In this document: positions 24,607-39,891 of the stretch, piece by piece
How positions within the stretch are numbered: position 1 is the first letter of the stretch
How the letters are laid out: every line of letters begins with the position of its first letter
NCBI GenBank assembly: GCA_024680815.1
Contig: JAILBQ010000111.1
Coordinates: 8,600 to 72,599, forward strand
DNA length: 64,000 nt
Source: Lachnospiraceae bacterium
Lineage (GTDB): Bacteria; Bacillota; Clostridia; Lachnospirales; Lachnospiraceae
Direction of reading: 5' to 3'
Translations under genes and position numbers: made by a program
Notes under the pieces: model-generated
Told to the model about the DNA's origin: nothing
What the model saw: only the letters and a program-made list of their open reading frames with translations
The model's database searches: none

Positions 24607-25287
24607 ATGAAAACATATCTTTCGTACATTCTTGATCCCGACGATCTGGTCTGGCCGGGAGAACCGAATATCGAAGTGACGCACTGTACGGAAATCAAGG
24701 GGGAAAGCAAGTATAATTCCTTCCTTTCCAGTCTTCCGAATCACTGCGGCACGCATTACGACGGCCCCTGGCATTTTAATCCGAACGGAGTAAAGTTCAC
24801 GGAGCTTCCGATAGAGTATTTCTGGTTTGATAAGGTGGCAGTCATCGATGTGCCGAAGAAGCCGGAGGAGGGAGTTGAGCCGAAGGATCTGGAGCCCTTC
24901 AGTGAGGAAATCGATAAGGCCGAGCTTTTGCTTATCAAGACCGGGTTTGCCTTTGTAAGAGAAAAGGAGCCGAAGGTATACCAGAATAACGGGCCGTATC
25001 TCTCACCCGATGTTGCGACTTATATGGTTGAAAATTTCCCCAAGCTCCGCACAGTGGGCTTTGACTTTCTTTCAATCGGTTCGCCCTGCAACAATCTCTC
25101 GGCTGAGACGCACCAGATCCTGCTGGGCTGCCATTCCGACCATTTTATAACGGGTATTGAGGATATGGACTTGAGGCCTCTGTATGAAAACACGGGAAAG
25201 GTTAAGCAGGTCATTGCCGCTCCTCTTCGTATAATCGGTCTGGACAGTTCCCAGGTATGTGTTATCGCAGAGCTGGAAGATAAATAA
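24607..25287 (+). CDS. Cyclase-family metal-dependent hydrolase (KynB/isatin hydrolase-like)
   Basis: PNHCGTHYDGPWHF (HxGTHxDxPxH), VGFDFLSIG, HQILLG, GIEDM; SD AAGGAGG. Confidence 0.92.
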   Translation: MKTYLSYILDPDDLVWPGEPNIEVTHCTEIKGESKYNSFLSSLPNHCGTHYDGPWHFNPNGVKFTELPIEYFWFDKVAVIDVPKKPEEGVEPKDLEPFSEEIDKAELLLIKTGFAFVREKEPKVYQNNGPYLSPDVATYMVENFPKLRTVGFDFLSIGSPCNNLSAETHQILLGCHSDHFITGIEDMDLRPLYENTGKVKQVIAAPLRIIGLDSSQVCVIAELEDK

Positions 25288-25353
25288 AACGAACACCGCA
25301 CCGTGAGGTGAGGAAATAAAAAAAGACAATTAAAAACAATGAAGGAGGTTGAA

Positions 25354-26565
25354 ATGAAACAGAAGGTATTGGCAGCTTTACTTACAGTGGCGATGACAGC
25401 GTCACTTCTTGCAGGTTGTACCGGAGCACCCGCCGGAGCAGCGGCTCCCGCAGCAGAACCGGCAGGCGGAGCGGATGAAGCGGCTGGCGCACCGGCATCC
25501 GACGCCGGAGCATCAGGCGATAAAATCAAGATCGGCTGCTCTATTTGGTCAACAACCGACGCCCTTGGCTCGCAGTGCAAACAGATTCTTGACGCGGCTG
25601 CGGATGCGCTCGGCGCAGAGGTTCAGTATGTTGACACGGGCTTTGTGGCGGATCAGGTTACGGGCTCCGTCGAACAGCTTGCAGCAGCGGGCTGCCAGGG
25701 AATCATAATCTGCAACTCGGCTGATTCGGAAATGGCTTCAGCTCTTCAGACCTGCAATGACAACAATGTTTATCTTGCACAGTTCTTCAGAATCGTTTCT
25801 GAAGAAAACAGCCCTGAAATTTATAAGATGGCTCAGGAATCCCCTTACTTCATCGGCGCGGTTCACGAAGATGAGGTGGAGAACGGAAAGGAACTTATCA
25901 GGATTCTTACCGAAGATAAGGGCTGCAGAGATATAGGTCTTATCGGATGGGTACAGGGCGATGCCACCTGGCTTGGAAGATGGGAAGGCTACAAGCAGGG
26001 AATCGAGGCGTGGAATTCGGCTCATCCCGATGATCCCGCAACCCTTTCGGAGCCTCAGTACGCCGGAACTTCTTCAGACGGCGGACGGAAAGCTGCGGAA
26101 GCTCTTATGTCTGCTGATCCCAACCTGGATGCTCTTATTCCGGCTGGCGGAAACGGAAATCCCCTTTTAGGCACCATCGCTGCAGTTGAAGGAGCAGGCA
26201 AGGTCGGTGAAATCGCCATCGTATCGACTGACTTTATCCCCGAGCTCGGCGAGAGACTTGCGGATGGATCAATGACTGCAGAGTCCGGCGGACATTACTG
26301 CGATCCCCTTATTGCCTTCATGATGGTTTACAACGCAATAAAGGGCAACTATCCGGTAGCGACAGATTCCTTTGAAAACGTGGATTTCCCTTATATCTTC
26401 GTTTCCTCCAAGGAAGACTATGATAATTACGCAAAATACTTTGTAGATGAGCTTCCGTATACGGAAGATGAGCTTAAGGAAATGGCAGAGCTTTCAATGC
26501 CTGAGCTCAAGGAAAAGGCAGCAGCGCTTTCACTTGAAGAAGTGCAGAGCCGTCACGGTAATTAA
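25354..26565 (+). CDS. Sugar ABC transporter substrate-binding lipoprotein (ABC1)
   Basis: Lipobox LLAGC, Ala/Pro linker, periplasmic-binding-protein pattern; SD AAGGAGGT precedes ATG 25354. Confidence 0.88.
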   Translation: MKQKVLAALLTVAMTASLLAGCTGAPAGAAAPAAEPAGGADEAAGAPASDAGASGDKIKIGCSIWSTTDALGSQCKQILDAAADALGAEVQYVDTGFVADQVTGSVEQLAAAGCQGIIICNSADSEMASALQTCNDNNVYLAQFFRIVSEENSPEIYKMAQESPYFIGAVHEDEVENGKELIRILTEDKGCRDIGLIGWVQGDATWLGRWEGYKQGIEAWNSAHPDDPATLSEPQYAGTSSDGGRKAAEALMSADPNLDALIPAGGNGNPLLGTIAAVEGAGKVGEIAIVSTDFIPELGERLADGSMTAESGGHYCDPLIAFMMVYNAIKGNYPVATDSFENVDFPYIFVSSKEDYDNYAKYFVDELPYTEDELKEMAELSMPELKEKAAALSLEEVQSRHGN

Positions 26566-26576
26566 CCGGTAGCTGG

Positions 26577-26607
26577 GAGCCGGCTTTCGTTTCGGCGAGG
26601 CCGGCTC
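26577..26607 (+). terminator. Stem-loop after the SBP gene (partial terminator or mRNA stabiliser)
   Basis: GAGCCGGCTTTCG...CGAGGCCGGCTC. Confidence 0.6.
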
Positions 26608-26655
26608 TCTTCTTAAAATGAACACCCTTCGGGGTGTTACGGTAAAGGAGCACTT

Positions 26656-27624
26656 ATGAATTCTTCCGGTTCAAAGAGCGGACTAAACAGAATTTTCGGA
26701 CGTTACACAGGCGCTGTTATCCTTGTGGGTCTTATTCTGGTTTCGTATGTGATATTCAAAATTCTCCGTCCCGAAACCTTCGGCCAGCCGAATCAGGTGC
26801 TGGCATACTTCCAGCAGTGTCTTATCGATTCGGTGGGAGCTGTCGGTCTGTATTTTATAATTGTCATGGGGCTTTTCGATTTTTCCCTGGGTGCAAACTG
26901 TATACTCTGCGCCATTGTGGGAACCGTATTCATGAAAGATCTGGGATTGGGCTATGCCGGTTTCCTCATTGCTCCGATTGTCTGCGGAGCTTTGGTGGGA
27001 CTCATTAACGGTATTGCATATATAAAGCTGCACATTCCGTCTATGATAGTCACCACCGGGCTGGCCCTGATTTATGAGTCTGTGGGCTACTATGTCAGCG
27101 GGGATGTCCAGGCGTTTCTTACAAAGGAACAGACCTTTTTCGGACATGTTCCCGGAAATCTGATTATCGCCTGCTTCGCTTTCCTTTTATCATATGTTCT
27201 GCTGGTGTATACAAAGGTAGGTACCTATGCCTACGCTATCGGCTCCAATGAAGCCGTGGCAAAAAACATGGGCATAGACGTTAAAAAATATAAGGTGCTG
27301 ACCTTTGTGATCACCGGGTTTTTTGACGGTCTTATGGGAATACTTGCGATTTCCTACGGTTCTTCAATGGCGGCCATTACGGGCATGGCTTCCATGAGCA
27401 GGAACTTTGCTCCTACCATGGGATGTTTCTTCGGATTGGCTTTCCGGCAGTACGGGATACCGATTCCGGCAATAATCGTGGGTGAGTTTCTTATTCAGAT
27501 AGTATACAACGGATTTGTTACACTGGGAGCCCCTACGGCCGTGCAGAATGTGGTTACGGGCGTGGCGCTGCTTCTGGTTGTTGCGTTTACCATGAAACCG
27601 GTTAAGGGTGAAATAGTCAAGTAA
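26656..27624 (+). CDS. Sugar ABC transporter permease (CUT2)
   Basis: Multi-TM; FDFSLG, GALVGLING, IPSMIVTTG, AYAIGSNEAVAKNMGIDV. Confidence 0.92.
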   Translation: MNSSGSKSGLNRIFGRYTGAVILVGLILVSYVIFKILRPETFGQPNQVLAYFQQCLIDSVGAVGLYFIIVMGLFDFSLGANCILCAIVGTVFMKDLGLGYAGFLIAPIVCGALVGLINGIAYIKLHIPSMIVTTGLALIYESVGYYVSGDVQAFLTKEQTFFGHVPGNLIIACFAFLLSYVLLVYTKVGTYAYAIGSNEAVAKNMGIDVKKYKVLTFVITGFFDGLMGILAISYGSSMAAITGMASMSRNFAPTMGCFFGLAFRQYGIPIPAIIVGEFLIQIVYNGFVTLGAPTAVQNVVTGVALLLVVAFTMKPVKGEIVK

Positions 27625-27639
27625 GGAGGTTTCATCGAT

Positions 27640-29142
27640 ATGCCAGATGTCAGACTGCAGGCCATAGACGTATGCAAGACCTTCGGCGTTATAAAGGCTG
27701 TTCAGAATGTTTCCATAGACTTTTATAAGGGTGAGGTTCACGGCCTTATCGGTGAAAACGGTTCGGGAAAATCCACTCTTATGCATACGCTTACCGGGAT
27801 TTTTTCATCAGACAGCGGAAGATTCATTCTGGACGGAAAGGAAGTACATGTAAAAAATCAGGTGGAAGCCAACAAAGAAGGCATCTCCATTATAGTTCAG
27901 GAGCTCGGAACCCTGTCGGGACTCACTGTTGCCGAAAACATTTTTTTAGGTCATGAGGACAGGTTTGTAAAATTCGGAATCAAAAACACCAACGCAATGG
28001 TGAAGGAAGCCGACGAGCTCTTAAAAAAGTACGGGTTTGAGCGGATTCATGCCGCTGATATGATCGACCGGTACAATTTCGAGGACAGAAAGCTTATAGA
28101 GATCGTAAAATCCACGTATTTTTCACCGAAAGTGGTGGTTATTGACGAGACCACGACAGCTCTTTCCCAGGAAGGAAGAGAAGAGCTCTATAAGCATATG
28201 AAGCGCATAAAGGAAGAGGGAAATACGGTAATCTTCATTTCCCATGACCTGTCGGAGGTTCTCTCTAAGTGTGACAGAGTGTCCGTGCTGAGGGATGGTG
28301 TTTATATTGATACGGTAAACGCCGCTGATGTTACCGAGGATGATCTTAAAAAACTCATGGTGGGGCGTGAACTGGGGGAACACTATTACAGAGAGGATTA
28401 CGGCGAAAAGATATCCGACGAGGTGGTTCTGACCGTGCGTAACGTGACGGTTCCCGGAATAATCCATGACGTGAGCTTTGAGCTTCATAAAGGGGAGATC
28501 TTAGGCTTCGGAGGTCTTTCGGAATGCGGTATGCATGAGCTGGGAAAAGCCGTGTTCGGAGCCTCCTATGACAGGGAGGGATCTGTAACCCTGGCTGACG
28601 GAACTGAGATAGACTCCATCATAAAAGCCATAAAGCACAGCATAGCCTATGCCTCAAAGGACAGGGACAATGAATCCATAGTTATAAATGAGAGCATCGG
28701 CGATAATATCTGCCTGCCCTCCCTTGACGAGCTGGGCGGCAGCGCTCATGTTCTCATAGATAAAAAGCTTAAGGAATTTGCCGAAAAGCAGGCGAAGGAA
28801 ATGAACGTAAAGATGGTGGATACGGAGCAGTTCGTGTCTGAGCTTTCCGGCGGAAATAAGCAGAAGGTCGTGCTAGCGCGCTGGATAGGAAAGAATTCGG
28901 ACATCATAGTGCTGGACAGTCCCACCAGGGGAATCGACGTGAAGGTTAAAGCCGATATTTATGCCCTTATGGATGAAATGAGAAAGAACGGCAAGTCCAT
29001 AATTATGATATCCGAAGAAATAATGGAGCTCATCGGAATGTGTGACCGCATAATAATTATGAAAGACGGCAGAAACAGCGGTGAAGAGCTTCTTCGGAAT
29101 CCTGAGCTTACCGAAAATGATCTCATAGCAAAGATGGTTTAA
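27640..29142 (+). CDS. Sugar ABC transporter ATP-binding protein (tandem NBD)
   Basis: GENGSGKST, VIDETT, LSGGNKQKV, LDSPTRGIDV. Confidence 0.96.
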   Translation: MPDVRLQAIDVCKTFGVIKAVQNVSIDFYKGEVHGLIGENGSGKSTLMHTLTGIFSSDSGRFILDGKEVHVKNQVEANKEGISIIVQELGTLSGLTVAENIFLGHEDRFVKFGIKNTNAMVKEADELLKKYGFERIHAADMIDRYNFEDRKLIEIVKSTYFSPKVVVIDETTTALSQEGREELYKHMKRIKEEGNTVIFISHDLSEVLSKCDRVSVLRDGVYIDTVNAADVTEDDLKKLMVGRELGEHYYREDYGEKISDEVVLTVRNVTVPGIIHDVSFELHKGEILGFGGLSECGMHELGKAVFGASYDREGSVTLADGTEIDSIIKAIKHSIAYASKDRDNESIVINESIGDNICLPSLDELGGSAHVLIDKKLKEFAEKQAKEMNVKMVDTEQFVSELSGGNKQKVVLARWIGKNSDIIVLDSPTRGIDVKVKADIYALMDEMRKNGKSIIMISEEIMELIGMCDRIIIMKDGRNSGEELLRNPELTENDLIAKMV

Positions 29143-29152
29143 GGAGGATGAA

Positions 29153-30142
29153 ATGGCTGGTGGTGATACATCAAAAAATGAAGCCCTTTCAATCGAAACG
29201 AATGCTTTAAAAAGAGCGGTGCTGGCTTCAAGGATCAGAGCCATACTTCCGGTCATCGGTCTTGTGGCGATCTCTTTGATTTTTAATATTCTGTCGGCAG
29301 GAAAGCTTCTGGCTCCTTCGAATATAAAGCTCTTAATGTCCCAGGTCTATGTGACCATGATAGCTGCAACCGGAGTGTTTTTCATAATGACAATGGGAGG
29401 TCTGGATTTTTCACAGGGTTCCATTCTCGGTGTGGCAGCCCTCGTATTCTGCTTTTTGTCAAAATACAATGTTCCGATCGCGATACTCGGAGGCATTCTT
29501 GCCGGAGCCTGCATAGGGGCGGTTAACGGTTTCTTCTATGTGAAGCGTAAGGTGAAGAGCTTTGTTGTTACGATATGTACAATGTTCCTTTTCAGGGGAG
29601 CGATAGAATTTGCAACCACAAACGCTCCGGTTCAGGGCGACATAGTTAAAACGGTCGCACTCAATAATGACAGACTGAAAATAACCATTACGCTCATAGT
29701 TCTTGTGGTGGCGTTCTTCTTTTTCAGATTTACAAAATTCGGAAAATATCTGAAGGCCATCGGGGCGGGAGAAAAGGCAGCGGCCTTTTCCGGAGTGGAA
29801 ACGGATAAGATGAAGTTCTGGGTATATGTGCTCTCCGGAGCAATAACGGGACTTGCCGCATTTATAAATGTGATAAAGGTGGGATCTGTTACGGCTAATT
29901 CCGGAAGCCAGCTTGAAACGAGGATCATGATAGCGCTGGTTATAGGCGGTATGCCTATTTCAGGCGGCTCCAAGGTCCGGTTTGAAAACGTGGTTGTAGG
30001 TTCCCTTCTTTACATTATCCTGAGCGCGGGCCTGGTTGCGCTGGGACTTACACCCGCCATGCAGCAGCTTATTGAAGGCGTTGTATTCCTTATTGTTGTT
30101 GCAATAACGAGTGACCGCAACTCGGTACAGGTAGTAAAGTAA
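29153..30142 (+). CDS. Sugar ABC transporter permease (CUT2)
   Basis: GGLDFSQGS, GAVNG, KAIGAGEKAAAFSGV, ALVIGGMPISGG. Confidence 0.92.
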   Translation: MAGGDTSKNEALSIETNALKRAVLASRIRAILPVIGLVAISLIFNILSAGKLLAPSNIKLLMSQVYVTMIAATGVFFIMTMGGLDFSQGSILGVAALVFCFLSKYNVPIAILGGILAGACIGAVNGFFYVKRKVKSFVVTICTMFLFRGAIEFATTNAPVQGDIVKTVALNNDRLKITITLIVLVVAFFFFRFTKFGKYLKAIGAGEKAAAFSGVETDKMKFWVYVLSGAITGLAAFINVIKVGSVTANSGSQLETRIMIALVIGGMPISGGSKVRFENVVVGSLLYIILSAGLVALGLTPAMQQLIEGVVFLIVVAITSDRNSVQVVK

Positions 30143-30167
30143 CTTAACAGTTTTTTGTTTCCTCCTG

Positions 30168-30202
30168 AAAAAAAGCTGCACCGTTAAGGTGTAGCTTTTT
30201 TT
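30168..30202. terminator. Bidirectional intrinsic terminator between ABC1 and gntR
   Basis: A7-GCTGCACC-GTTAA-GGTGTAGC-T7. Confidence 0.9.
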
Positions 30203-30258
30203 CGACTTTAATTTGAAAGGGGGGATGTAATTATCAGGGAGATTTTCCGGACTTTCGT

Positions 30259-30948
30259 TTAATCGGAAAAATATTTGTAGTTCTGTCCGATGTGTTCCCG
30301 CATAATCTGTTCGGCCAGGGCTTCGTTTCTCTTTTTCATGGCACTGATAATTTTCCTGTGGTAGTCCAGCGCCGGCTTGTAGCCCATCTTTTCTATAACG
30401 GAGTACATGGACTCCTTAAGCACGTTCAGAAGAATATCATAGGCCTTTATTATCATCGGATTGCCGGAAAGCTTTACTATGACCATATGAAATTTCAGAT
30501 CATAGTGTGAAAAGGATTTTCCGTTGTCCTCGGAGGCAGCTTTTTTCATCTTGTCAAGCAGATCCTCAAGATGTTTAAGGCTCTTGGCGTCCGCAATCGG
30601 AGTGGCGATCCGTACGCTGGCGGATTCAATCATTTCACGGAACTGGAAAACATGAACCTGCGAGGGCTTTCCTATATACATAAGGGGGATAAGCTCGTTA
30701 AGGGAATCCTCCAGATTGAGCTCGCGGACATAGGAGCCTGAACCGGTACGGGTTTCTATGAGCCCCAGGGCTTTCAGCTTCTGCATCGCCTGACGGATGG
30801 TCATGCGGCTGACACCGAAGGTAGCCGACAGCTCATTTTCGGAGGGCAGCTTGTCGCCGGAACGCCAGGTTCCTTCTATAAGAAGCTGCTGCATCTGATC
30901 AAAGACCTGTTCCACTACATTGATTTTCTGGATTGGCTGAATATTCAT
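30259..30948 (-). CDS. GntR/FadR-family transcriptional regulator
   Basis: GDKLPSENELSATFGVSRMTIRQA...GSGSYV; FCD domain DLKFH...NP...HRKI...EH. Confidence 0.96.
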   Translation of the reverse strand: MNIQPIQKINVVEQVFDQMQQLLIEGTWRSGDKLPSENELSATFGVSRMTIRQAMQKLKALGLIETRTGSGSYVRELNLEDSLNELIPLMYIGKPSQVHVFQFREMIESASVRIATPIADAKSLKHLEDLLDKMKKAASEDNGKSFSHYDLKFHMVIVKLSGNPMIIKAYDILLNVLKESMYSVIEKMGYKPALDYHRKIISAMKKRNEALAEQIMREHIGQNYKYFSD

Positions 30949-30987
30949 AATGACCTTTCAAAATGTGTAATGCTGTCAACCGGTTAC

Positions 30988-31040
30988 CTGTCTTACAAGT
31001 TATCATTTCTTATTATAACTGCACTGATTGAATATGTCAA
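30988..31040 (-). promoter_or_regulatory. gntR promoter with a downstream operator-like site
   Basis: Minus strand TTGACA(31040-31035)-17-TATAAT(31017-31012), then TTGTAAGACAG (30998-30988). Confidence 0.8.
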
Positions 31041-31106
31041 AAGGAAAATCTGATTTTTGGTAATTGTGCAAGAAAAAAGTGGTCAATGATAGTACATTTT
31101 AACCAA

Positions 31107-31178
31107 TTGACAATTTCACAACGGACAGATAAAATGGACTTAACCTGTTATACAGCTTACGGCTTTACAACATACAAC
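31107..31178 (+). promoter_or_regulatory. Promoter plus operator-like array upstream of the transketolase-garR operon
   Basis: TTGACA(31107)-17-TAAAAT(31130); CTGTTATACAG at 31145; heptamers ATACAGC, TTACGGC, TTACAAC, ATACAAC. Confidence 0.85.
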
Positions 31179-31241
31179 TTATTTCGGGAGTGTTTCCCGG
31201 AATACCAAAAACAGCTATGAACCGGTGGAGGGAAAATAATC

Positions 31242-32063
31242 ATGGCGTACAGCGAAGAACTGATCAGATCATTAAAGGAAAAAGGTCAGGTGCTCAGACG
31301 CGACTGCATAAAGTGCATCGGCGTGGGCGTGGCCGGTCATGTGGGAGGGAGCTGCTCGAGTGCTGATCTTGTAGCTGCTCTGTATTTCCACAAGATGAAG
31401 GTGGATCCGAAGAATCCGGAGTGGGAGGAGAGGGATTATTTCCTTCTTTCCAAGGGGCATGTGGCGATTCTGCAGTATGCGGCCCTGGCAGAGAAAGGAT
31501 ATTTCCCGGTAGAGGATCTTCCTCATTGCAAGGATATAGGATTTTATCTTCAGGGTCATCCCCATCTCGGAATTCCCGGGATCGAAGCCGGCACAGGCTC
31601 CCTGGGACAGGGACTTTCCCTTGGCTCCGGCATGGCGATAGGTCTTAAAATGGACGGCAAACCCAACCGGGTATATGTGCTGGTAGGCGACGGCGAAATG
31701 GACGAGGGACAGATCTGGGAAGCGGCCATGTCCTCAAGCGCCAAGAAGCTGGACAATCTCTGCGCGATTATAGACAACAACGGCCTGCAGGCCATGGGTG
31801 TCATCAAGGACAGGCTTCCCAACGAACCGGTAGCCGATAAATGGAAGGCCTTCGGCTGGAACGTTATCGAAATCGACGGTCATAATATGGAAGAAATTCT
31901 TGAGGCGCTGGATGAGGCGGAAAAATTCAAAGGCGCTCCCACCGCAATAGTGGCTCATACAGTTAAGGGCAAGGGCATCAGCTTTGCGGAGAATCAGGTA
32001 GGCTACCACAACAGAGCCCTGACCCAGGAAGAGTTTGACAAGGCTATGGAAGAGCTTGCATAA
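31242..32063 (+). CDS. Transketolase, N-terminal (TPP-binding) subunit
   Basis: GHVGGSCS, FLLSKGH, LQGHP, TGSLGQG, VGDGEMDEGQIWEA, DNNGLQ. Confidence 0.96.
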   Translation: MAYSEELIRSLKEKGQVLRRDCIKCIGVGVAGHVGGSCSSADLVAALYFHKMKVDPKNPEWEERDYFLLSKGHVAILQYAALAEKGYFPVEDLPHCKDIGFYLQGHPHLGIPGIEAGTGSLGQGLSLGSGMAIGLKMDGKPNRVYVLVGDGEMDEGQIWEAAMSSSAKKLDNLCAIIDNNGLQAMGVIKDRLPNEPVADKWKAFGWNVIEIDGHNMEEILEALDEAEKFKGAPTAIVAHTVKGKGISFAENQVGYHNRALTQEEFDKAMEELA

Positions 32064-32080: not shown

Positions 32081-33016
32081 ATGGCTGAAACAAATCAAAG
32101 AAATGCATATGGCAAGACACTTGTGGAGCTCTGCCGTGAAAACAAAAATATCGTAGCCCTTGATGCCGATCTGGGCGGCTCAACTATGGGGAAGATGGTG
32201 GAAATAGAGCCCGGTATGGAGGAAAGACATATCGAAATGGGAATTGCCGAGGCAAATATGATTTCCACCGCCGGAGGTCTGGCGAGAGTCGGGAAAATTC
32301 CGTTCTGCAGCTCGTTCGCGGTGTTTACTGCGGGAAGAGCCTTCGACCAGATCAGACAGTCCATCGCCATCGGAAAGCTTAATGTTAAAATATGCGGTTC
32401 CTCGGCAGGATGCTCGGACTTCGGAGACGGGGCGACCCATCAGTCCGTGGATGACATCGCATATATGAGGGTTATTCCCAACATGAGCGTGTTTGTTCCG
32501 GCGGATGCCAACGAGACAGTGGCTGTCATAAAATATATGGCAAGTCATGAGGGACCCATGTATATGCGTGTTAACCGCAATCCGTACGATAACGTAACAC
32601 CGGAAGGCGCCGAGTTTGTTCCCGGCGAACCGGTCGTGCTTAAGGAGGGCACGGATGTGGCGGTTTTTGCCTGCGGAATAATGGTTATCAAGGCTCTGGA
32701 GGCCGCGAAGGCCCTGGAGGGGAAAATTTCCGTAAAGGTAGTCAATGTACGTTCCATCAAGCCCCTTAACCGGGAGAGCGTTATAGATATTGCAAAGAGT
32801 GTAAAGGGCTGCGTGACCGCCGAAGAGCACAGCATTATCGGCGGCCTGGGCGGCGCGATTTCCGAAGCTCTACGTCTGGAACGCGTACCGGTGGAGTTTG
32901 TGGGAATCAATGACAGATTCGGTTCTTCCGCTCATAATTACAAGGATATCCTCGATTATCTCGGGCTGACCTCCGATCATATTGTGGAAGCGGTTGAAAA
33001 GATTAATTCGCTGTAA
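32081..33016 (+). CDS. Transketolase, C-terminal subunit
   Basis: LDADLGGST, EMGIAEANM, RAFDQIR, DGATHQS, YMRVNR, TAEEHSIIGGLG. Confidence 0.96.
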   Translation: MAETNQRNAYGKTLVELCRENKNIVALDADLGGSTMGKMVEIEPGMEERHIEMGIAEANMISTAGGLARVGKIPFCSSFAVFTAGRAFDQIRQSIAIGKLNVKICGSSAGCSDFGDGATHQSVDDIAYMRVIPNMSVFVPADANETVAVIKYMASHEGPMYMRVNRNPYDNVTPEGAEFVPGEPVVLKEGTDVAVFACGIMVIKALEAAKALEGKISVKVVNVRSIKPLNRESVIDIAKSVKGCVTAEEHSIIGGLGGAISEALRLERVPVEFVGINDRFGSSAHNYKDILDYLGLTSDHIVEAVEKINSL

Positions 33017-33049
33017 TAAGGAGCTGTATAAAGAAAGGAGATATTTATC

Positions 33050-33946
33050 ATGAAGGTAGGTTTTGTAGGACTCGGAATTATGGGACGCCCCATGTGCAAG
33101 AATCTTCTGAAGGCGGGTTATGAGGTAACAGCCTTTGATCCGTTTGCGAAGGAAGCCTTGGACGATGTGGTGTCTGCCGGAGCGGCAAGGGGAGAGAGCA
33201 ATGCCGACGTGGCTTCTAAAAGCGACGTTGTGATTACGATGGTTCCCAATTCACCCCACGTCCGTGAAGCGATCTTCGGCGAAAAGGGTGTGGCGGAAGG
33301 CGCTAAGGCCGGACTTGACATCATCGACATGAGCTCCATTGCACCGCTTCAGTCAAAGGATATCGCGGAGAAATGCGCTGAGAAGGGCATCAATATGATG
33401 GATGCTCCGGTTTCCGGCGGAGAGCCCAAGGCGATCGACGGCACTCTTTCGATTATGTGCGGCGGCCCGAAGGCTCTGTTCGACAAGTATTCCGAGCTTC
33501 TGGGAGTTATGGGTGCCTCCGTTGTCCACTGCGGAGAGTTGAACGGAGCCGGTAACACCACAAAGCTTGCCAATCAGGTAATTGTAGCCGTAAATATCGC
33601 GGCCTGCGCTGAGGCCTATGAACTGGCTATTATGGCTGGTGTGGATCCCGAAAAGGTATTTGCCGCGATCCGCGGAGGACTTGCGGGCTCAACTGTTATG
33701 GATGCCAAGGTTCCCATGATGCTGGACGGCAATTTCAAGCCCGGCTTCCGTATCGACCTGCACATCAAGGATCTGAACAATGCTCTGGATACCGGCCACG
33801 GTGTCGGCACCCCGATGATTCTTACAAGCGCCGTGCAGGAGATGCTGCAGTGGCTGCATAACAATGACTGCGGCAGCGATGATCACAGCGCAATCCTTAA
33901 GTATTATGAAAAGCTCTCGGGAGTTGAGATGAGAAAAATTAAATAA
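33050..33946 (+). CDS. garR: 2-hydroxy-3-oxopropionate (tartronate semialdehyde) reductase
   Basis: GFVGLGIMGRPM, MVPNSPHV, DMSSIAP, DAPVSGGEPKAIDGTL, TKLANQVIV, FRIDLHIKDL; closely GarR-like. Confidence 0.9.
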   Translation: MKVGFVGLGIMGRPMCKNLLKAGYEVTAFDPFAKEALDDVVSAGAARGESNADVASKSDVVITMVPNSPHVREAIFGEKGVAEGAKAGLDIIDMSSIAPLQSKDIAEKCAEKGINMMDAPVSGGEPKAIDGTLSIMCGGPKALFDKYSELLGVMGASVVHCGELNGAGNTTKLANQVIVAVNIAACAEAYELAIMAGVDPEKVFAAIRGGLAGSTVMDAKVPMMLDGNFKPGFRIDLHIKDLNNALDTGHGVGTPMILTSAVQEMLQWLHNNDCGSDDHSAILKYYEKLSGVEMRKIK

Positions 33947-33974
33947 ATAACGGGGTGCATTTAATAAAAAATTG

Positions 33975-34029
33975 TTGCAAATTTAACAAAGCTCTGATAA
34001 AATCTGTTATACAGGATACAGTATAACAG
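33975..34029 (+). promoter_or_regulatory. Promoter plus palindromic operator-like site upstream of the ABC2-glycerate kinase operon
   Basis: TTGCAA(33975)-17-TAAAAT(33998); CTGTTATAC-AGGATACA-GTATAACAG at 34004-34029. Confidence 0.85.
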
Positions 34030-34124
34030 GTGCCATCCGGACATCGATGAAGCCGTGTGAAAAAACGAACCATTCACCGAAAGGTGGGTAAATATTAATC
34101 CAATAATTTTTTAAGGAGGTTAAC

Positions 34125-35165
34125 ATGAAAAACAAGTTACTCGCAACATTGATTACCGCAGCAATGACAGCTTCTCTTCTTGCAGGATGCACCGGCGCAG
34201 CGCCTGCAGAGAGCGCCGCTCCCGCAGCGGAGCCCGCAGCCGAGGCAGCGACAGAGGATGCCGCCCCCGCAGCGGATGCTTCTTCCGGAGATTCGGGAAA
34301 TCTTACGGTGGGCTTCAGCCAGTATGCTTCCTACAACAACTGGCGCGTGACCAACACGGACGATATCAACCGTGCGCTTAACGAGCAGGGCTGGAAGGTT
34401 ATCTTCGCCGATGCCAATGATGACACGGCCCAGCAGATTTCCGATCTGGAAGACATGATTGCCCAGCAGCCTGATTATCTCGTAATCGGTGCCCGCGAGC
34501 AGGAAGGCTATGAGAACGTTCTTCAGGAAGCGGCTGATGCGGGAATCAAGATCGTGCTTTTCGACCGCCTGGCGGATGGCCCTCATGATGTTCTGATTCA
34601 GGGCGACTATATCATGGAAGGTGAAAATGTAGGACAGGCTGTTGTGGATACCTTCGGCGATGACAAGGAGATCAATATCGTCGAGCTTACAGGAACACCC
34701 GGCGCGGACGTGACCGCCCAGCGTTCCGAAGGCTTCATGAACATCATTTCGCAGCATCCCAATTACAAGATTCTTGCTTCCCAGGTCGGAAACTTCTCCC
34801 GTACTGAGTCCCAGACGGCTATGGAGAATCTGATTCAGTCCTACGGCGATAAGATCGATGTTGTCTATGCTCATTCCGATGATAACGGCATCGGCGCCAT
34901 CAACGCCATCGAGGCTGCCGGACTTAAGGCCGGTGAAGATATTGAGGTCTTCGGTGTTGACGGAACCAAGGACGGCCTCCAGGCTATCGTGGACGGCAAG
35001 ATGAAGGCCACCTACCTCTGCAATCCTTTCTACGGCGACGCTATTGTTGATCTCATCAAGAGACTCGAAGCCGGAGAAACCTTTGAGGACAGAGAGATCC
35101 TTCAGGGCAAGCTCTACACCATCGACAACGCGCAGGCTTCTCTTGACGCCGGCGAGGGCTTCTAA
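34125..35165 (+). CDS. Sugar ABC transporter substrate-binding lipoprotein (YtfQ-like, ABC2)
   Basis: Lipobox LLAGC; VGFSQ...WRVTNT, AGIKIVLFDR, GTPGA...RSEGF, SQVGNFSR, DDNGIGAI, GVDG. Confidence 0.9.
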   Translation: MKNKLLATLITAAMTASLLAGCTGAAPAESAAPAAEPAAEAATEDAAPAADASSGDSGNLTVGFSQYASYNNWRVTNTDDINRALNEQGWKVIFADANDDTAQQISDLEDMIAQQPDYLVIGAREQEGYENVLQEAADAGIKIVLFDRLADGPHDVLIQGDYIMEGENVGQAVVDTFGDDKEINIVELTGTPGADVTAQRSEGFMNIISQHPNYKILASQVGNFSRTESQTAMENLIQSYGDKIDVVYAHSDDNGIGAINAIEAAGLKAGEDIEVFGVDGTKDGLQAIVDGKMKATYLCNPFYGDAIVDLIKRLEAGETFEDREILQGKLYTIDNAQASLDAGEGF

Positions 35166-35207
35166 GTATAATAAATTCTGTAAATAATTGCTATTTCATA
35201 ATGTGAG

Positions 35208-35236
35208 GTGGAGGAGCCTTTTGCTCCTCCACTTTT
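35208..35236 (+). terminator. Stem-loop with U-tract after the SBP2 gene
   Basis: GTGGAGGAGC-CTTTT-GCTCCTCCAC-TTTT. Confidence 0.75.
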
Positions 35237-35257
35237 AAAAAAGGGACAGGAAAAGAT

Positions 35258-36787
35258 ATGGATAATAACCTTCTTCTCGAAATGAAACAGATCGACAAAC
35301 ATTTTACCGGCGTACACGCGCTGGATCAGGTCGATTTTGCGGTCAGAAAGGGAGAGATCCATGCGCTGATGGGAGAGAACGGAGCCGGAAAGTCAACCCT
35401 GGTTAAGGTTCTGACGGGACTCTACGGCAAAGATTCGGGGCAGATAATCTTTGACGGGGAGGAGCGCAGTTTCCCTACGCCTCAGGATTCCCAGAACGCC
35501 GGCATCAGCACTATCTATCAGGAAATCAACCTGATCCCGCATCTGTCCGTGGCGGAAAATATTTTCATCGGAAGGGAACCGAAAAATGTTTTCGGCATTG
35601 ACTGGAAGGCGGTGCGTTCCCAGGCCAGGCAGCTGCTTTTAGACAACGGAATTGATATCGACGTGACACAGGATCTGGCCACCTATTCCACCGCGATCCA
35701 GCAGATGGTTGCGATAACCAGAGCCATTTCTCAGAACGCGAAACTTTTGATTATGGACGAGCCCACATCTTCCCTGGCGGAGGATGAAATCCAGGTGATG
35801 TTTGAGAAAATGCGGGAGCTGGTGGCAAAGGGCATGTCCATTATTTTCATCAGCCACAAGCTGGACGAGGTTTATACGATCTGCGACAGGGCCACTATTC
35901 TTAAAGACGGAAAACTTGTGGGCAGTTACGATATAGACAAAATCTCCAGGCTGGAAATGGTTTCCAAAATGATCGGGCGGGACGCCAGCAACGTACTGAA
36001 GCGTTCCGTGGGTGAATATGAGGCGAAGGAAGGAACTGCGGCGCTGCTCCATACAAAGGATATCGACAACAGGGTTAAGCTTCACGGAATATCCATTGAT
36101 ATAAGGCCCGGCGAGATCGTGGGTGTGGCAGGGCTTTTAGGCGCGGGTAAAACGGAGTTTGCCAAGGTGGTATTCGGCTGCGACAACACCTATACCGGTG
36201 AGATTGAGGTGGAGGGAAAGCCCATCCGCATGAATACCCCCAAGGGTGCCATCGATCTGGGCTTTGCCTATTGCTCCGAGGACAGGAAGGTGGAGGGGAT
36301 CTTCCCGCACATGTCCGTAAAGGAGAATATGACCATTACGGCCCTTTCCAGAATTTCAAAATTCGGTGTGGTGGATACCCGGAAACAAAAGGAAATTGTG
36401 GATAAATACATCGATTCCATCCGTATCAAGACCCCGAGTCCGGATCAGCTGATCTGCAACCTTTCAGGCGGAAACCAGCAGAAGGTGCTCTTAGGGCGGT
36501 GGCTCTCCATGGATCCGAAGCTTATTATTCTGGACGAACCCACCCGCGGCATCGACGTGGGAGCGAAGGCGGAGATTGAGGCTCTTATCAAACAGTTCTC
36601 CGAAAACGGCATCAGCGTTCTTTATATTTCCTCAGAGCTGGAGGAGCTTATCAGAAACTGCTATCGTGTGGTGGTTATCCGAGACGGCATGAATTCCGGC
36701 GAGCTCACCGGAGAGGATATCACAGAGGCAAATATCATGAACTATATCGCAAAAAACATGAAGGAAACGGAGGAGGCTCATGGCTGA
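35258..36787 (+). CDS. Sugar ABC transporter ATP-binding protein (YtfR-like)
   Basis: GENGAGKST, MDEPTSSL, LSGGNQQKV, LDEPTRGIDVGAK. Confidence 0.96.
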   Translation: MDNNLLLEMKQIDKHFTGVHALDQVDFAVRKGEIHALMGENGAGKSTLVKVLTGLYGKDSGQIIFDGEERSFPTPQDSQNAGISTIYQEINLIPHLSVAENIFIGREPKNVFGIDWKAVRSQARQLLLDNGIDIDVTQDLATYSTAIQQMVAITRAISQNAKLLIMDEPTSSLAEDEIQVMFEKMRELVAKGMSIIFISHKLDEVYTICDRATILKDGKLVGSYDIDKISRLEMVSKMIGRDASNVLKRSVGEYEAKEGTAALLHTKDIDNRVKLHGISIDIRPGEIVGVAGLLGAGKTEFAKVVFGCDNTYTGEIEVEGKPIRMNTPKGAIDLGFAYCSEDRKVEGIFPHMSVKENMTITALSRISKFGVVDTRKQKEIVDKYIDSIRIKTPSPDQLICNLSGGNQQKVLLGRWLSMDPKLIILDEPTRGIDVGAKAEIEALIKQFSENGISVLYISSELEELIRNCYRVVVIRDGMNSGELTGEDITEANIMNYIAKNMKETEEAHG

Positions 36788-37763
36788 GGGAAGACAGAAG
36801 GCTCAGGTTTACAAAACCGTGCTTAACGAGCATTTGAAAAAGTTCGGTGCGGTATATGCATTCCTGCTCCTGATTATAATTAATGCGATATCCAACGAGA
36901 ACTTCCTGGCCATCAACACCATGTGGAACCTGCTTATACAGGCTTTCCCCATCATCATCACCTCTCTGGGCATGCTCTTTGTCATTTCCAGCGGCGGTAT
37001 CGATGTTTCCGTGGGATCGGTCATGGCTGTGGCCGGCGGTATGAACGCGGTTATTATGAACGGGATTTATCCGGCTTTCCCGCGAAGTATTTTTCTCGGT
37101 ATCGTGATGGCGCTTGTGGTATCGCTGATGTTCGGATTTTTTAACGGGTTCATGATTTCGGTCTTTAACATGCAGCCGATTATCGTGACGCTGACCACCT
37201 ATATCATAGCCAGAGGGCTGACGCAGCTCATCGCAAACGGCAAGATTCTTTCATTCTCCAATACGCCGTTTAACGCGGTGGGAGTTTTAAGGCTTCCCGG
37301 CAATGTCCCGATCCAGTTCATAATAGAAATACTGTTCGTGCTGATTACGGCCTTTGTGATAAAGAGGATGGTGTTCGGCTATCAGGTGCAGGCCATCGGT
37401 GAGAATCCTCAGGCGGCAAAGCTTTGCGGGATACAGACCACGAAGGTACAGATCATGGTATATATGATCAGTTCCTTTATTGCCGCTATCGCCGGACTCC
37501 TGGTTTCTTCCCGGACAAGCGCGGCTGATCCCACCAATCTGGGAGCGCTGGCGGAGATGGATGCCATCGCGGCCGTTGCCATCGGCGGCACCTCGATGTC
37601 GGGCGGCAAATCAAGGATTTTAACCACCGTCATCAGCGCGATGATCATCCAGCTTATCACGATAACCATCAACATGAATAATATCCACTATGCCTACGCC
37701 CGTATCATGAAGGGCCTGATTATTATCATAGCGGTATATATTCAGCAGGATAAAAAGCGCTAA
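36780..37763 (+). CDS. Sugar ABC transporter permease (YtfT-like)
   Basis: GGIDVSVGS, MQPIIVTL, AIGENPQAA, EMDAIAAVAIGGTSMSGG. Confidence 0.93.
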   Translation: MAEGRQKAQVYKTVLNEHLKKFGAVYAFLLLIIINAISNENFLAINTMWNLLIQAFPIIITSLGMLFVISSGGIDVSVGSVMAVAGGMNAVIMNGIYPAFPRSIFLGIVMALVVSLMFGFFNGFMISVFNMQPIIVTLTTYIIARGLTQLIANGKILSFSNTPFNAVGVLRLPGNVPIQFIIEILFVLITAFVIKRMVFGYQVQAIGENPQAAKLCGIQTTKVQIMVYMISSFIAAIAGLLVSSRTSAADPTNLGALAEMDAIAAVAIGGTSMSGGKSRILTTVISAMIIQLITITINMNNIHYAYARIMKGLIIIIAVYIQQDKKR

Positions 37764-37777
37764 GGGGGGACGGAAAA

Positions 37778-38731
37778 ATGACAGCCATAAAGAGATTTTT
37801 CTCAAAACAAAGTGCCCTCGCTGCGTTGATCGTGATTTTCATCATATCCCTGATGCTCTATCCTGTTTCACGCACCTGGACCAATATGTATAACCTGCTC
37901 CGGCAGAATTCCATGATCGGTCTGATTGCCGTGGCGATGACCATGGTTATCTTAACCGGCGGCATCGATCTTTCGGTCGGCGCGGTCTGTTCGATGATCA
38001 CCGTTATTTCTGCATACCTGAGCATAACGGAAAATCCGGTGATTATCCTCCTGCTTCCGCTGATAATCGGAACTCTGTTCGGCTTTGTGAACGGCTTTGT
38101 CGTCGCCAAGATGAGAGTGGCGCCGATTATATCATCCCTGGGCATACAGCTTATTGCCAGGGGAATTTCGCTGGTTATGACCAGCGGTGAGACCATGCAT
38201 ATTTCGGGCAGCGCGAAGCAATGGCTTCCCCAGATCGCAAAGATCAAGGTGGGACCGCTTCCTCTTATTTTCCTGGTCTTTCTCGTGTTTGCGCTTATCT
38301 TTATTTATATTCTTAAGTTCAGGAAATTCGGCCGTCAGATTTACGCGGTGGGCGGAAATGAGGATGCGGCACAGATGATGGGAATCCGCGTGGATCGCAT
38401 AAAAATCGCGGTGTACACCATTTCCGGCTTCGCCTCGGCGCTGGCGGGACTCATCCTGGTTTCCAGGGCCGGTACCGGGCAGCCCGTGGCCTGCGACGGC
38501 TGGGAGATGGACGCCATTGCCTCAGTGGCCATCGGCGGAACAAGCCTGGCGGGCGGCTCAGGCAATATTGAAACGACAATTTACGGTGTGTTTATTCTTG
38601 CCATTATCGGAAATATGATAAATCTTCAGGGGAATATCAATTCCTGGTGGCAGCAGATTATTACCGGACTGCTTCTTATAGTGGTGCTTATGCTTCAGGT
38701 AATTCCGTCCTGGAGAAAGAGCAGGGCATAG
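37778..38731 (+). CDS. Sugar ABC transporter permease (YjfF-like)
   Basis: TGGIDLSVG, YAVGGNEDAAQMMG, WEMDAIASVAIGGTSLAGG. Confidence 0.93.
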   Translation: MTAIKRFFSKQSALAALIVIFIISLMLYPVSRTWTNMYNLLRQNSMIGLIAVAMTMVILTGGIDLSVGAVCSMITVISAYLSITENPVIILLLPLIIGTLFGFVNGFVVAKMRVAPIISSLGIQLIARGISLVMTSGETMHISGSAKQWLPQIAKIKVGPLPLIFLVFLVFALIFIYILKFRKFGRQIYAVGGNEDAAQMMGIRVDRIKIAVYTISGFASALAGLILVSRAGTGQPVACDGWEMDAIASVAIGGTSLAGGSGNIETTIYGVFILAIIGNMINLQGNINSWWQQIITGLLLIVVLMLQVIPSWRKSRA

Positions 38732-38742
38732 GATTAAGTAAA

Positions 38743-39891
38743 ATGAAATTATTATTTGCTTCGGATTCCTTTAAAGGAGGCCTTACAAGCCGGCAGACGA
38801 TCGAGCTTCTGACAAAGGCCGCGCACGAGGTTTTCGGTGATTGCGAAACCGGCGGTGTTCCGGTGGCGGATGGCGGAGAGGGAACGGTTGACGCCGTTAT
38901 TGGAGCGGAAAACGGAGATATTATCCGCTGTGAAGTGCACGGGCCTCTTATGGAAAAAATTGAAGCCCGTTACGGGGTTTTCGGAGGAGACCAGGCGGTT
39001 ATCGAGATGTCCGCCTCTTCCGGCCTTCCTCTTGTCCCGCTTAAAGACCGCAATCCGATGTACACCTCGACCGTGGGCACCGGAGAGCTGATAAAGGATG
39101 CCCTGGACAAAGGATACCGGAAGCTTGCCGTCGCCATCGGAGGTTCGGCTACCAATGACGGCGGTATGGGCTGCGCCCGCGCTCTGGGTGTGCGCTTTCT
39201 GGACAAGGACGGCAGGGAGCTTGAGGGTTGCGGAAGAGACCTTATCAATGTGCGTTCGATAGACCTCTCCGGCCTCGACGGACGCGTAAAGGAAAGTGAA
39301 ATCACCGTTATGTGCGATGTCACGAATCCCCTTTGCGGCCCTGACGGCGCAACATGGACTTTCGGCGCACAGAAGGGCGCCACGCCTGAAATCCAGGAGC
39401 AGCTCGAAGAGGGGATGTGCAATTACCGGGATGTGATAAAAGCTTCTTTCGGGGTTGATTGCGACGCTTTGCAGGGGGCCGGTGCAGCCGGGGGACTTGG
39501 TGCGGCTTTATCGGTTTTTTTCGGTGGAAGGATGAAATCCGGTATTGATACGGTGCTTGATCTGATACACTTCGATGAGCGTCTTGAAGGCGTTGACCTG
39601 GTTGTTACCGGCGAGGGCAGAACCGACTGGCAGAGCTGCTTCGGAAAGGTTATGCGGGGAGTCGGAGAGAGGGCTAAGGCAAAAGGGATTCCGGTACTCG
39701 GTCTTTCCGGTTCGCTGGGGAAAGGCGCGATGGATATCTGCAAATACGGGGTTTCATCCCTGATGGTCACGGTCAATACCCAGATGACCCTGGAGGAGGC
39801 GATTGAGAAGGGAGAGGATCTGTATTACGAGGCCGCGGTCCGGATGTTCCTCTTTGTCAGAACCGGAATGGGGATGAAGCATATCTTGTAG
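38743..39891 (+). CDS. glxK: Glycerate kinase (GlxK/GarK family)
   Basis: ASDSFKG, PVADGGEGT, IGGSATNDGG, GAGAAGGLG, TGEGRTD; ATG 38743. Confidence 0.95.
   Translation: MKLLFASDSFKGGLTSRQTIELLTKAAHEVFGDCETGGVPVADGGEGTVDAVIGAENGDIIRCEVHGPLMEKIEARYGVFGGDQAVIEMSASSGLPLVPLKDRNPMYTSTVGTGELIKDALDKGYRKLAVAIGGSATNDGGMGCARALGVRFLDKDGRELEGCGRDLINVRSIDLSGLDGRVKESEITVMCDVTNPLCGPDGATWTFGAQKGATPEIQEQLEEGMCNYRDVIKASFGVDCDALQGAGAAGGLGAALSVFFGGRMKSGIDTVLDLIHFDERLEGVDLVVTGEGRTDWQSCFGKVMRGVGERAKAKGIPVLGLSGSLGKGAMDICKYGVSSLMVTVNTQMTLEEAIEKGEDLYYEAAVRMFLFVRTGMGMKHIL

Follow-up and report, generated by a model that had tools for sequence, protein, structure and literature searches.

A 64-kb window of the genome of a rumen or gut Lachnospiraceae bacterium (the whole stretch of DNA analyzed, positions 8600-72599 of contig C62; the genome comprises 2.86 Mb in 145 contigs) contains an island of 14 genes at 24607-39891 that appears to be devoted to the breakdown of a sugar acid. 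Judging from sequence, we assign a probability of about one half to the reading that this island forms the center of a regulon, repressed by a GntR/FCD protein, for the use of a sugar acid or its gamma-lactone, in which a specialized split transketolase (TK) replaces dehydratase and aldolase. The chemistry at every step, the acceptor of the TK reaction, and which substrate is used are inferred. The island holds a cyclase-family hydrolase, two CUT2 ATP-binding cassette (ABC) importers, the split TK, the tartronate semialdehyde reductase GarR, and a glycerate kinase (Table 1). All of these had been listed in a first-pass annotation of the same DNA, and the gene content of 24607-39891 bore out its further observation that the island has no aldolase, dehydratase, glyoxylate carboligase (Gcl), or sugar kinase. 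Its flanks are housekeeping genes, with lgt on one side and the mraZ/rsmH/PBP cell division cluster on the other.

The two TK subunits, between which the active site lies, together carry the Pfam domains PF00456, PF02779, and PF02780. The residues that identify a TK are present in the PP, Pyr, and C domains, including the GDG...NN motif, His26, His66, His100, His261, Glu411, Asp469, and His473 (Escherichia coli numbering). We mapped active-site residues by aligning the C-terminal subunit (TK-C) of the window separately to human TK and to the split TK of C. hydrogenoformans, and we built a subfamily alignment from 56 island-type TK-C subunits and the housekeeping TK of the genome. TK-C has the signature S107-S108-A-G-x-S-D113-F-G-D116-G-A-T-H120-Q. 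The histidine that normally binds the substrate phosphate (His461 in E. coli, His416 in human TK) is a serine in 55 of the 56 subunits (Ser108 in the window). Asp113 is present in all 56, and the segment S-D-[FY]-G-D-G stands in place of T-V-G-E-D-G. The equivalents of Arg358, Ser385, Glu411, Asp469, His473, and Arg520 are also invariant (56/56), and all catalytic and thiamine diphosphate (ThDP)-binding residues are kept. The phosphate-binding set Arg358/Ser385/His461/Arg520 is thus altered at the His461 position, with both arginines and the serine retained. An E. coli TktA variant with the changes R358I, H461S, and R520Q has increased activity on 5-keto-D-gluconate (PMC12016104), which matches the natural His-to-Ser change of the subfamily, and TK cleavage of 5-keto-D-gluconate has been reconstituted in vitro (PMC13527115).

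A housekeeping identity for the island TK was ruled out by three observations. The genome encodes a second, canonical split TK (C2:479-2267, minus strand) directly downstream of a gene resembling that for L-ribulose-5-phosphate 4-epimerase (AraD); its identity to the island subunits is 51% and 45%, and its motif is the normal T-H-A-G-x-T-V-G-E-D-G. Orthologues of the housekeeping TK were found in 64 of 101 sampled genera of the family, and the island type was found in 8 of 301. In a phylogenetic tree, the island-type TKs formed one cluster, outside which the housekeeping TK and AptB lay on long branches, so that the clustering with housekeeping enzymes that the first-pass annotation had named as telling against its proposal did not occur. 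The tree members come from at least eight phyla (Bacillota, Spirochaetota, Verrucomicrobiota, Planctomycetota, Acidobacteriota, Actinomycetota, Atribacterota, and Pseudomonadota). Membership in either known class of dedicated TK was rejected as well. The subunits are only 37% (N-terminal subunit, TK-N) and 32% (TK-C) identical to AptA and AptB of E. coli SE15, which have a different motif (GLNAGASYGPLASTHH), and the island has no FGGY kinase. As for SqwGH, judged on context alone, no sulfoquinovose isomerase, sulfoacetaldehyde reductase, or isethionate exporter was found in the island or in 80 related loci. Public sources name these proteins only "transketolase" or "transketolase family protein," and a full-text literature search found no paper that links a TK with tartronate semialdehyde reductase or describes the cassette.

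GarR exceeded the cutoffs of both relevant models (NF008592, 457.5 bits against a cutoff of 397; TIGR01505, 400.9 bits against 340.75) and aligned with Salmonella GarR (1VPD) at 387 bits and approximately 60% identity, with identical substrate-site motifs. By these equivalog cutoffs and its identity to a characterized enzyme, it is predicted to be a tartronate semialdehyde reductase. The glycerate kinase matched TIGR00045 (424 bits; cutoff, 168) and PF02595 (436 bits) and fell below the cutoffs of both the 2-kinase and the 3-kinase equivalog models; its true start is probably 38743 rather than 38647. The sources from which tartronate semialdehyde is normally drawn are missing from this genome, which is an estimated 93% complete. 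The best genome-wide match to Gcl (TIGR01504) scored 340 bits against a cutoff of 711 and represents acetolactate synthase-like paralogues, which eliminates the Gcl glycerate pathway. No GarL/HpcH aldolase (PF03328) was matched anywhere in the genome, and the island has neither GarD/GudD nor GarL, so the D-glucarate/galactarate (gar/gud) pathway was likewise rejected.

The genes of the island seem to be controlled together. The sequence CTGTNNNACAG occurs exactly three times in the window, against an expectation of 0.3, and none of 100 shuffles reached three copies. It takes the form of a CTGT-N3-ACAG palindrome, and each copy lies immediately 3' of the -10 box of a strong promoter, at 24517 (cyclase), 31145 (TK-N), and 34004 (between garR and the gene for the substrate-binding protein [SBP] of ABC system 2). 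Genome-wide, one further site has the same promoter-operator architecture (TTGACA-N17-TATAAT, operator, repeat). This site, C15:5600, is 60 bp upstream of a monocistronic Zn-dehydrogenase gene (C15:5663-6688). Additional operator sites on C126, C134, and C64 were discarded for want of the promoter architecture or a relevant gene. The same operator precedes the TK operons of five related loci (L004, L005, L012, L016, and L052). We consider it well supported that cyclase-ABC-1, TK-GarR, ABC-2-glycerate kinase, and the C15 Zn-dehydrogenase are coregulated as one regulon. The adjacent GntR protein, with a winged helix-turn-helix domain (PF00392) and an FCD domain (PF07729), is the presumed repressor and would be expected to respond to an organic acid. 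Its own promoter is a perfect TTGACA-N17-TATAAT (31040-31012). The gntR-tktN intergenic region (30949-31241) has back-to-back consensus promoters with an operator on the tkt side only, and autoregulation of gntR through this operator may therefore be absent.

The coregulation that the first-pass annotation had proposed is well supported by an operator at all three island promoters, but its picture of a single island proved too narrow, as the fourth operator lies on another contig. It had also overlooked the need for a dehydrogenase to make the ketone on which a TK could act. The island itself does not contain the dehydrogenase seen in related operons, and the candidate is the unlinked C15 enzyme behind the shared operator. 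This Zn-dehydrogenase is 88 to 90% identical to those of loci L061 and L084 (88% to that of L061) and 62 to 64% identical to Zn-dehydrogenases encoded directly upstream of TK-N in Enterocloster aldenensis.

We then examined the neighborhoods of the 80 related loci, 45 of which have at least 5 kb on both sides (full flanks). Carriers available in culture are Butyrivibrio sp. INlla21, Enterocloster aldenensis, Youngiibacter multivorans DSM 6139, Faecalicatena contorta, and Anaerobacterium chartisolvens DSM 27016. TK-N accompanied TK-C in 78 of the 80 loci and in all 45 with full flanks. GarR (52 to 96% identical) was present in 57/80 and 34/45, usually in a contiguous TKN-TKC-GarR block. A short-chain dehydrogenase/reductase (SDR) or a Zn-dehydrogenase was found in 38 of the full-flank loci. 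GntR (35/80; 19/45), a psicose-3-epimerase/IolO-like (ketose-3-epimerase-like) TIM barrel (16/80; 10/45), and GlxK, often right after GarR (10/80; 7/45), were less frequent. The best solved relatives of the SDR are gluconate 5-dehydrogenases, and the Zn-dehydrogenases are of the polyol or L-idonate-5-dehydrogenase type; both types oxidize the penultimate carbinol, which would create the ketol that a TK donor needs. In minimal cassettes (SDR, TK, GarR, and GlxK), the TK is the only enzyme able to cut carbon-carbon bonds. Three TK-GarR loci have a MOFRL-type (class II) glycerate kinase in place of the GlxK type (L022, 11917-13215, minus strand; L024, 5638-6867; L082, 5670-6935), which is a nonorthologous displacement. 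The independent recruitment of two unrelated kinase families argues that glycerate is the product.

The transporters of the related loci bear on the nature of the substrate. The closest relative, L004 (90% identity in TK-C), has the order GntR, TKN-TKC-GarR-SDR-DctP-DctQ-DctM-epimerase-FGGY kinase-Zn-dehydrogenase, and L012 and L016 have a TctA-type transporter together with a PdxA-family enzyme. Both tripartite ATP-independent periplasmic (TRAP) and tripartite tricarboxylate transporter (TTT) systems transport carboxylates, and FCD-type regulators characteristically sense carboxylates. Since such transporters and regulators accompany the cassette, the substrate is likely an acid. Lactonase-like hydrolases of three folds (cyclase, Amidohydro_2, and metallo-beta-lactamase) recur in the TK operons. 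XylB-like FGGY kinases scoring below the xylulokinase cutoff flank the cassette in L004 (11999-13546) and L084 (4934-6472, minus strand), the latter paired with a BtpA/SgcQ-family protein (4061-4882, minus strand); these kinases may act on an unphosphorylated ketose formed by the TK. In other loci, the cassette shares an operon with glycoside hydrolases (GH), namely, GH51 ArfA (equivalog), GH2, GH43, GH127-like (a homologue of "aceric acid hydrolase"), and GH39, and with CUT1 or Opp-type ABC systems (L027, 4784-9140; L013, 7532-9115; L026, 5978-8080; L087, 12814-20724).

Other parts of the island recur in another setting. In L084/G134 (85% identity in TK-C), a GntR-TKN-TKC-GarR unit adjoins an IclR-controlled operon that encodes a cyclase, a YtfQ-like ABC system, an Eda-like aldolase, DgoD (equivalog, 635 bits), a Zn-dehydrogenase, a PfkB kinase, and GlxK. 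The first gene of this operon encodes a cyclase that is 85% identical to that of the island, and ABC systems 83 to 90% identical to island ABC-2 follow the cyclase in both L084 and L061. In L061, the cyclase-ABC2-Zn-dehydrogenase block is fused directly to SDR-TKN-TKC-GarR-Amidohydro_2. The pieces are scattered in the present genome, where dgoA-dgoK-dgoD is found at C105 (approximately 10144-13070), beside gap-pgk-tpi. By gene content, the L084/G134 operon looks like an oxidative De Ley-Doudoroff route from galactofuranose through D-galactono-1,4-lactone to D-galactonate, with a cyclase-family lactonase, that is as yet undescribed. The module for uptake and lactone opening has been joined to the TK-GarR module repeatedly, which suggests that the two work together.

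In the pathway that we favor, the substrate would be taken up by one or both CUT2 systems, of which the YtfQ-like one would recognize furanose-shaped rings, the shape of an aldono-1,4-lactone. The cyclase-family hydrolase would open the lactone, and the C15 Zn-dehydrogenase would oxidize the penultimate (omega-1) hydroxyl to give an HOCH2-CO-CHOH- ketol end. The TK would then move a C2 unit to an acceptor, probably glyceraldehyde-3-phosphate, yielding xylulose-5-phosphate and freeing the remainder as an aldehyde-acid. If the released part is to be tartronate semialdehyde, the donor must be a C5 4-dehydropentonate. GarR would reduce tartronate semialdehyde to D-glycerate, reoxidizing the NADH from the dehydrogenase step, and GlxK would phosphorylate glycerate for entry into glycolysis. 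With one oxidation and one reduction, the route would be redox neutral, which suits a fermenter. The idea that a TK supplies the C3 acid was already part of the first-pass annotation; it agrees with the pairing of TK and GarR in 34 of 45 loci, the separate TK subfamily, and the absence of Gcl and GarL, and the chemistry itself is predicted from the genes. Of the two donors it had offered, a 4-oxo-pentonate cleaved to tartronate semialdehyde is also our best reading.

Conservation of Asp116 and His120 (Asp469 and His473 in E. coli) would favor a D-threo (3S,4R) donor. This isomer, 4-dehydro-D-arabinonate, is identical to 4-dehydro-L-xylonate. As judged from E. coli IdnD/IdnO, the Zn-dehydrogenase could make it from L-xylonate and the SDR from D-arabinonate; oxidative decarboxylation of galactarate would in principle be a further source. 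Possible natural substrates are L-xylonate, L-lyxonate, and their lactones, which form when plant ascorbate is degraded (PMC11066805). Extending this to the whole subfamily is more tentative, and we would put it at somewhat less than an even chance. The split TKs with the motif SS-x-G-x-S-D-[FY]-G-D-G would be natural keto-aldonate transketolases. With an (omega-1)-dehydrogenase, GarR, and glycerate kinase as partners, they would constitute an unrecognized, redox-neutral, and carbon-conserving route for pentonates and their lactones (4-dehydropentonate plus glyceraldehyde-3-phosphate to xylulose-5-phosphate plus tartronate semialdehyde), spread horizontally through anaerobes of at least eight phyla, with L-xylonate and D-arabinonate as candidate substrates.

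Several observations weigh against this pathway. Both phosphate-binding arginines are kept in the TK, so that phosphorylated substrates may also be accepted. Ketols formed from the aldonates of D-galactofuranose and L-arabinofuranose would need an epimerase to acquire a configuration that suits a TK, and no operator-linked epimerase was found in this genome. For the same reason, we did not adopt a route from arabinofuranose through arabinonate to the TK, as the aldonates of L-arabinose and D-galactose give L-threo or L-tagaturonate-type ketols that are unsuitable without an epimerase. The island is also composite, and the cyclase and ABC-2 may serve a galactonate route as well as the TK; the earlier suggestion that the cyclase acts as a lactonase fits the recurring lactonase-like hydrolases of three folds, but an exclusive supply to the TK may not hold. 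The Zn-dehydrogenase of L084/G134 may be a furanose 1-dehydrogenase and not act at the omega-1 carbon. L026 and L046 encode an aldehyde dehydrogenase in place of GarR, which suits tartaric semialdehyde better than tartronate semialdehyde. The precedents, like the similarity between the SDR and gluconate 5-dehydrogenase, speak for a C6 donor no less than for a C5 donor. Finally, approximately 12 related operons also hold GH51 ArfA, GH43, GH127-like, GH2, GH39, or GH29-like genes and oligosaccharide ABC systems, which suggests a neutral, glycoside-derived sugar that our model does not explain. We know of no plant glycan that releases a pentonic acid; either the substrate is one that we have not considered or the glycoside hydrolase operons bundle several functions.

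With a C6 donor, the TK would cleave 5-keto-D-gluconate to L-threo-tetruronate (tartaric semialdehyde), which a GarR homologue would reduce to L-threonate or an aldehyde dehydrogenase would oxidize to tartrate. The 5-keto-D-gluconate could come from D-gluconate (SDR), L-idonate (Zn-dehydrogenase), or D-galactonate (Zn-dehydrogenase plus the IolO-like epimerase). Among TK reactions on keto-aldonates, only this one has an experimental precedent, and the engineered variant includes H461S. By stereochemical reasoning, 5-keto-D-gluconate has the 3S,4R configuration that a TK requires. The scheme further accounts for the split among loci between SDR alone and Zn-dehydrogenase plus epimerase, the resemblance of the cassette epimerase to the 5-keto-L-gluconate epimerase IolO, the synteny with DgoD and a galactofuranose-type transporter, the gluconate 5-dehydrogenase-like SDR, and the aldehyde dehydrogenase loci. 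We nevertheless find it unlikely. The C4 acid would have no onward route, as the genome has no DUF1537 tetronate kinase, and four carbons out of six would go to waste. The glycerate kinases, recruited to the cassette from two unrelated families, would be left without a role, and these, like the close orthology of GarR to a true tartronate semialdehyde reductase, imply a C3 product. Besides lacking an operator-linked epimerase, this genome has no close relative of the L004 epimerase. Rather unlikely, too, is a composite island without acid chemistry for the TK. The cyclase, ABC-2, and Zn-dehydrogenase would convert galactofuranose or arabinofuranose to D-galactonate, to be finished by the dgoDKA genes of C105; GarR and GlxK would serve another purpose, and the TK would use neutral unphosphorylated by-products (such as glycolaldehyde or D-glyceraldehyde as acceptor or donor) to make xylulose for a XylB-like kinase. 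The gene order of the L084/G134 operon, the FGGY kinases beside the cassette, a His-to-Ser change that suits any unphosphorylated substrate, and the arabinofuranoside-directed hydrolases in many of the operons all agree with it. What it leaves unexplained is the contiguity of GarR and TK in three quarters of the full-flank loci, across many phyla and mostly without dgo genes, as well as the acid transporters and FCD regulator and the source of the GarR substrate in a genome without Gcl or GarL.

Two further schemes would keep a C3 acid and change the way it arises. The second donor of the first-pass annotation was a branched acid. In such a scheme, 3-oxo-isoapionate, or another tertiary ketol acid of this kind derived from apiose or aceric acid, would be cleaved by the TK to hydroxypyruvate plus a C2 unit, and the hydroxypyruvate would be isomerized to tartronate semialdehyde for GarR. 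Cleavage at a tertiary carbon has a precedent, since AptAB acts at that of apulose-4-phosphate, and the PdxA-family enzyme of L012 and L016, a Hyi-like TIM barrel in some loci, and the gene resembling that for aceric acid hydrolase in L026 would find a place. The regulon, however, has no PdxA/ApnO oxidoisomerase and no hydroxypyruvate isomerase or reductase. The low identity of the TK to AptA and AptB (32 to 37%) and its other motif also speak against this donor, and an SDR or a Zn-dehydrogenase is all that most loci offer, neither of which can oxidize a tertiary carbinol; we regard it as very unlikely. The least probable scheme, for which we would allow only a slim chance, makes the TK a ThDP-dependent decarboxylase or carboligase that forms tartronate semialdehyde directly, for example, from oxaloglycolate (oxidized tartrate) or two glyoxylates, as a nonhomologous substitute for Gcl. 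TKs decarboxylate hydroxypyruvate and their relative DXS decarboxylates pyruvate; a dehydrogenase, a ThDP enzyme, GarR, and GlxK formally make up the classical tartrate-to-glycerate sequence, and Gcl itself is absent. Yet the TK-specific residues that hold the C1, C3, and C4 hydroxyls of a ketose donor are all conserved, and sugar-type ABC importers, glycoside hydrolases, epimerases, and lactonases would make no sense for C2 or C4 acids.

Among known systems, the proposed keto-aldonate pathway comes closest to the 5-keto-D-gluconate TK route (the proposed grapevine tartrate synthesis, engineered TktA, and the reconstituted TK plus SSDH). There too, the substrate of the TK is an unphosphorylated (omega-1)-keto aldonate from which an aldehyde-acid is released, a gluconate- or idonate-5-dehydrogenase-like enzyme makes the ketone, and the His461-to-Ser change is common to the subfamily and engineered TktA. 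That route uses housekeeping or engineered full-length TKs for biosynthetic or artificial ends and gives a C4 product, whereas the island has a dedicated split TK with both arginines kept in a catabolic regulon, and its GarR orthologue and glycerate kinase imply a C3 product. The D-apiose pathway (ApsI, AplK, and AptA/AptB; MetaCyc PWY-8089) likewise has a dedicated split TK, a CUT2 ABC importer, and transfer of a C2 unit to give xylulose-5-phosphate. AptAB, however, needs the AplK kinase and converts a phosphorylated branched ketose to dihydroxyacetone phosphate; the island has no kinase for this and no isomerase, and GarR and GlxK play no part in apiose breakdown. In the sulfo-TK pathway for sulfoquinovose, SqwGH is again a split TK that removes C2 units from a sugar with an anionic end other than a phosphate, and an NADH-dependent reductase acts on the aldehyde that is left over, balancing redox in anaerobes. 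Compared by gene content only, the island differs in having no sulfoquinovose isomerase, sulfoacetaldehyde reductase, or sulfonate exporter; the anion would be a carboxylate, and the leftover carbon would be kept rather than excreted.

The terminal steps, from tartronate semialdehyde through D-glycerate to phosphoglycerate, are shared with garPLRK-gudPD and gcl-hyi-glxR-glxK of E. coli. Those routes reach tartronate semialdehyde by GarD/GudD plus GarL or by Gcl, in place of which the present organism would use a TK and a dehydrogenase. The L-idonate (IdnD/IdnO) and D-galactonate (DgoRKADT) systems of E. coli resemble the proposed pathway in that aldonates are oxidized or reduced at the omega-1 carbon by a Zn-dehydrogenase and an SDR and in having a GntR/FCD repressor with a TGTA-N-TACA-type operator, and homologues of DgoD, DgoK, and DgoA are linked to the cyclase/ABC module in relatives. 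Both go on by phosphorylation and dehydration without a TK, in contrast to the ABC or TRAP uptake and cyclase-family hydrolase found here.

The coordinates of the island genes and control elements are collected in Table 1. The cyclase has a PF04199 domain with an intact HxGTHxDxPxH metal motif and is weakly related to kynurenine formamidase, scoring 58 bits with the arylformamidase equivalog TIGR03035 (cutoff, 223). It is likely a PF04199 member with a substrate other than that of kynurenine formamidase, and a lactonase role is inferred from synteny only. A paralogue of the SBP of system 1 (70% identical) is encoded on C141 among RimK-like genes, uvrC, and hprK, an uninformative context. Between the lgt terminator and the cyclase promoter, an Rfam scan identified a Clostridiales-1 RNA (RF01699; window positions 24178-24392, plus strand; 82 bits against a gathering threshold of 48). 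This is a known small RNA motif of unknown function, so the structured element is not a new four-way junction. It was the only hit of the scan of the island, which thus gave no riboswitch that would indicate a ligand. A 107-amino-acid open reading frame that overlaps this element (24155-24478) had no family match.

Table 1. Features of the island and of related, putative galactonate-type operons (window coordinates unless a locus is named)
Feature	Position	Strand	Remarks
Promoter TTGACA-N17-TAAAAT plus operator CTGTAATACAG, upstream of the cyclase/ABC-1 operon	24479-24527	+	
Cyclase-family (PF04199) metal hydrolase; candidate gamma-lactonase	24607-25287	+	PF04199, 76 bits
Lipoprotein SBP of CUT2 ABC system 1, divergent Peripla_BP_4	25339-26565	+	
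ABC system 1: permease 26656-27624, ATPase 27640-29142, permease 29153-30142	26656-30142	+	
Terminator-like hairpin, bidirectional, between ABC-1 and gntR	30166-30204		
GntR/FCD (FadR-type) regulator, divergent; presumed repressor	30259-30948	-	
Promoter plus operator CTGTTATACAG, upstream of tktN	31107-31155	+	
Transketolase N-terminal (PP-domain) subunit TK-N	31242-32063	+	Catalytic His and GDG...NN Mg/ThDP motifs intact
Transketolase C-terminal subunit TK-C (Pyr plus C domain)	32081-33016	+	
GarR, predicted tartronate semialdehyde (2-hydroxy-3-oxopropionate) reductase	33050-33946	+	Equivalog scores; identity to Salmonella GarR
Internal promoter TTGCAA-N17-TAAAAT plus operator CTGTTATACAG, before ABC system 2	33975-34014	+	
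YtfQRT/YjfF-like (furanose-type) CUT2 ABC importer 2: SBP 34125-35165, ATPase 35258-36787, permeases 36780-37763 and 37778-38731	34125-38731	+	
Glycerate kinase (GlxK/GarK family, PF02595)	38743-39891	+	
Putative galactonate-type operon in relatives	L084, 11595-19599; L101 (G134:C21), 8191-18648		

To our knowledge, dedicated catabolic TKs have been described for two substrates only, apulose-4-phosphate and sulfofructose. The kind of enzyme is therefore already known, and what appears to be new here is a carboxylated donor. If our reading is correct, the island-type TKs would be a third dedicated class, acting on unphosphorylated keto sugar acids, and sugar acids would be broken down without a dehydratase and aldolase. 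They would also offer a natural enzyme for the keto-aldonate cleavage that is now being engineered for tartaric acid production. A cyclase-family lactonase in a galactofuranose-to-galactonate route would explain the fate of the sugar imported by YtfQ-type transporters. More broadly, a function would be assigned to a cassette that is common in anaerobes of the gut, the rumen, and sediments, and this could explain what becomes of pentonates and of the products of ascorbate breakdown where oxygen is absent.

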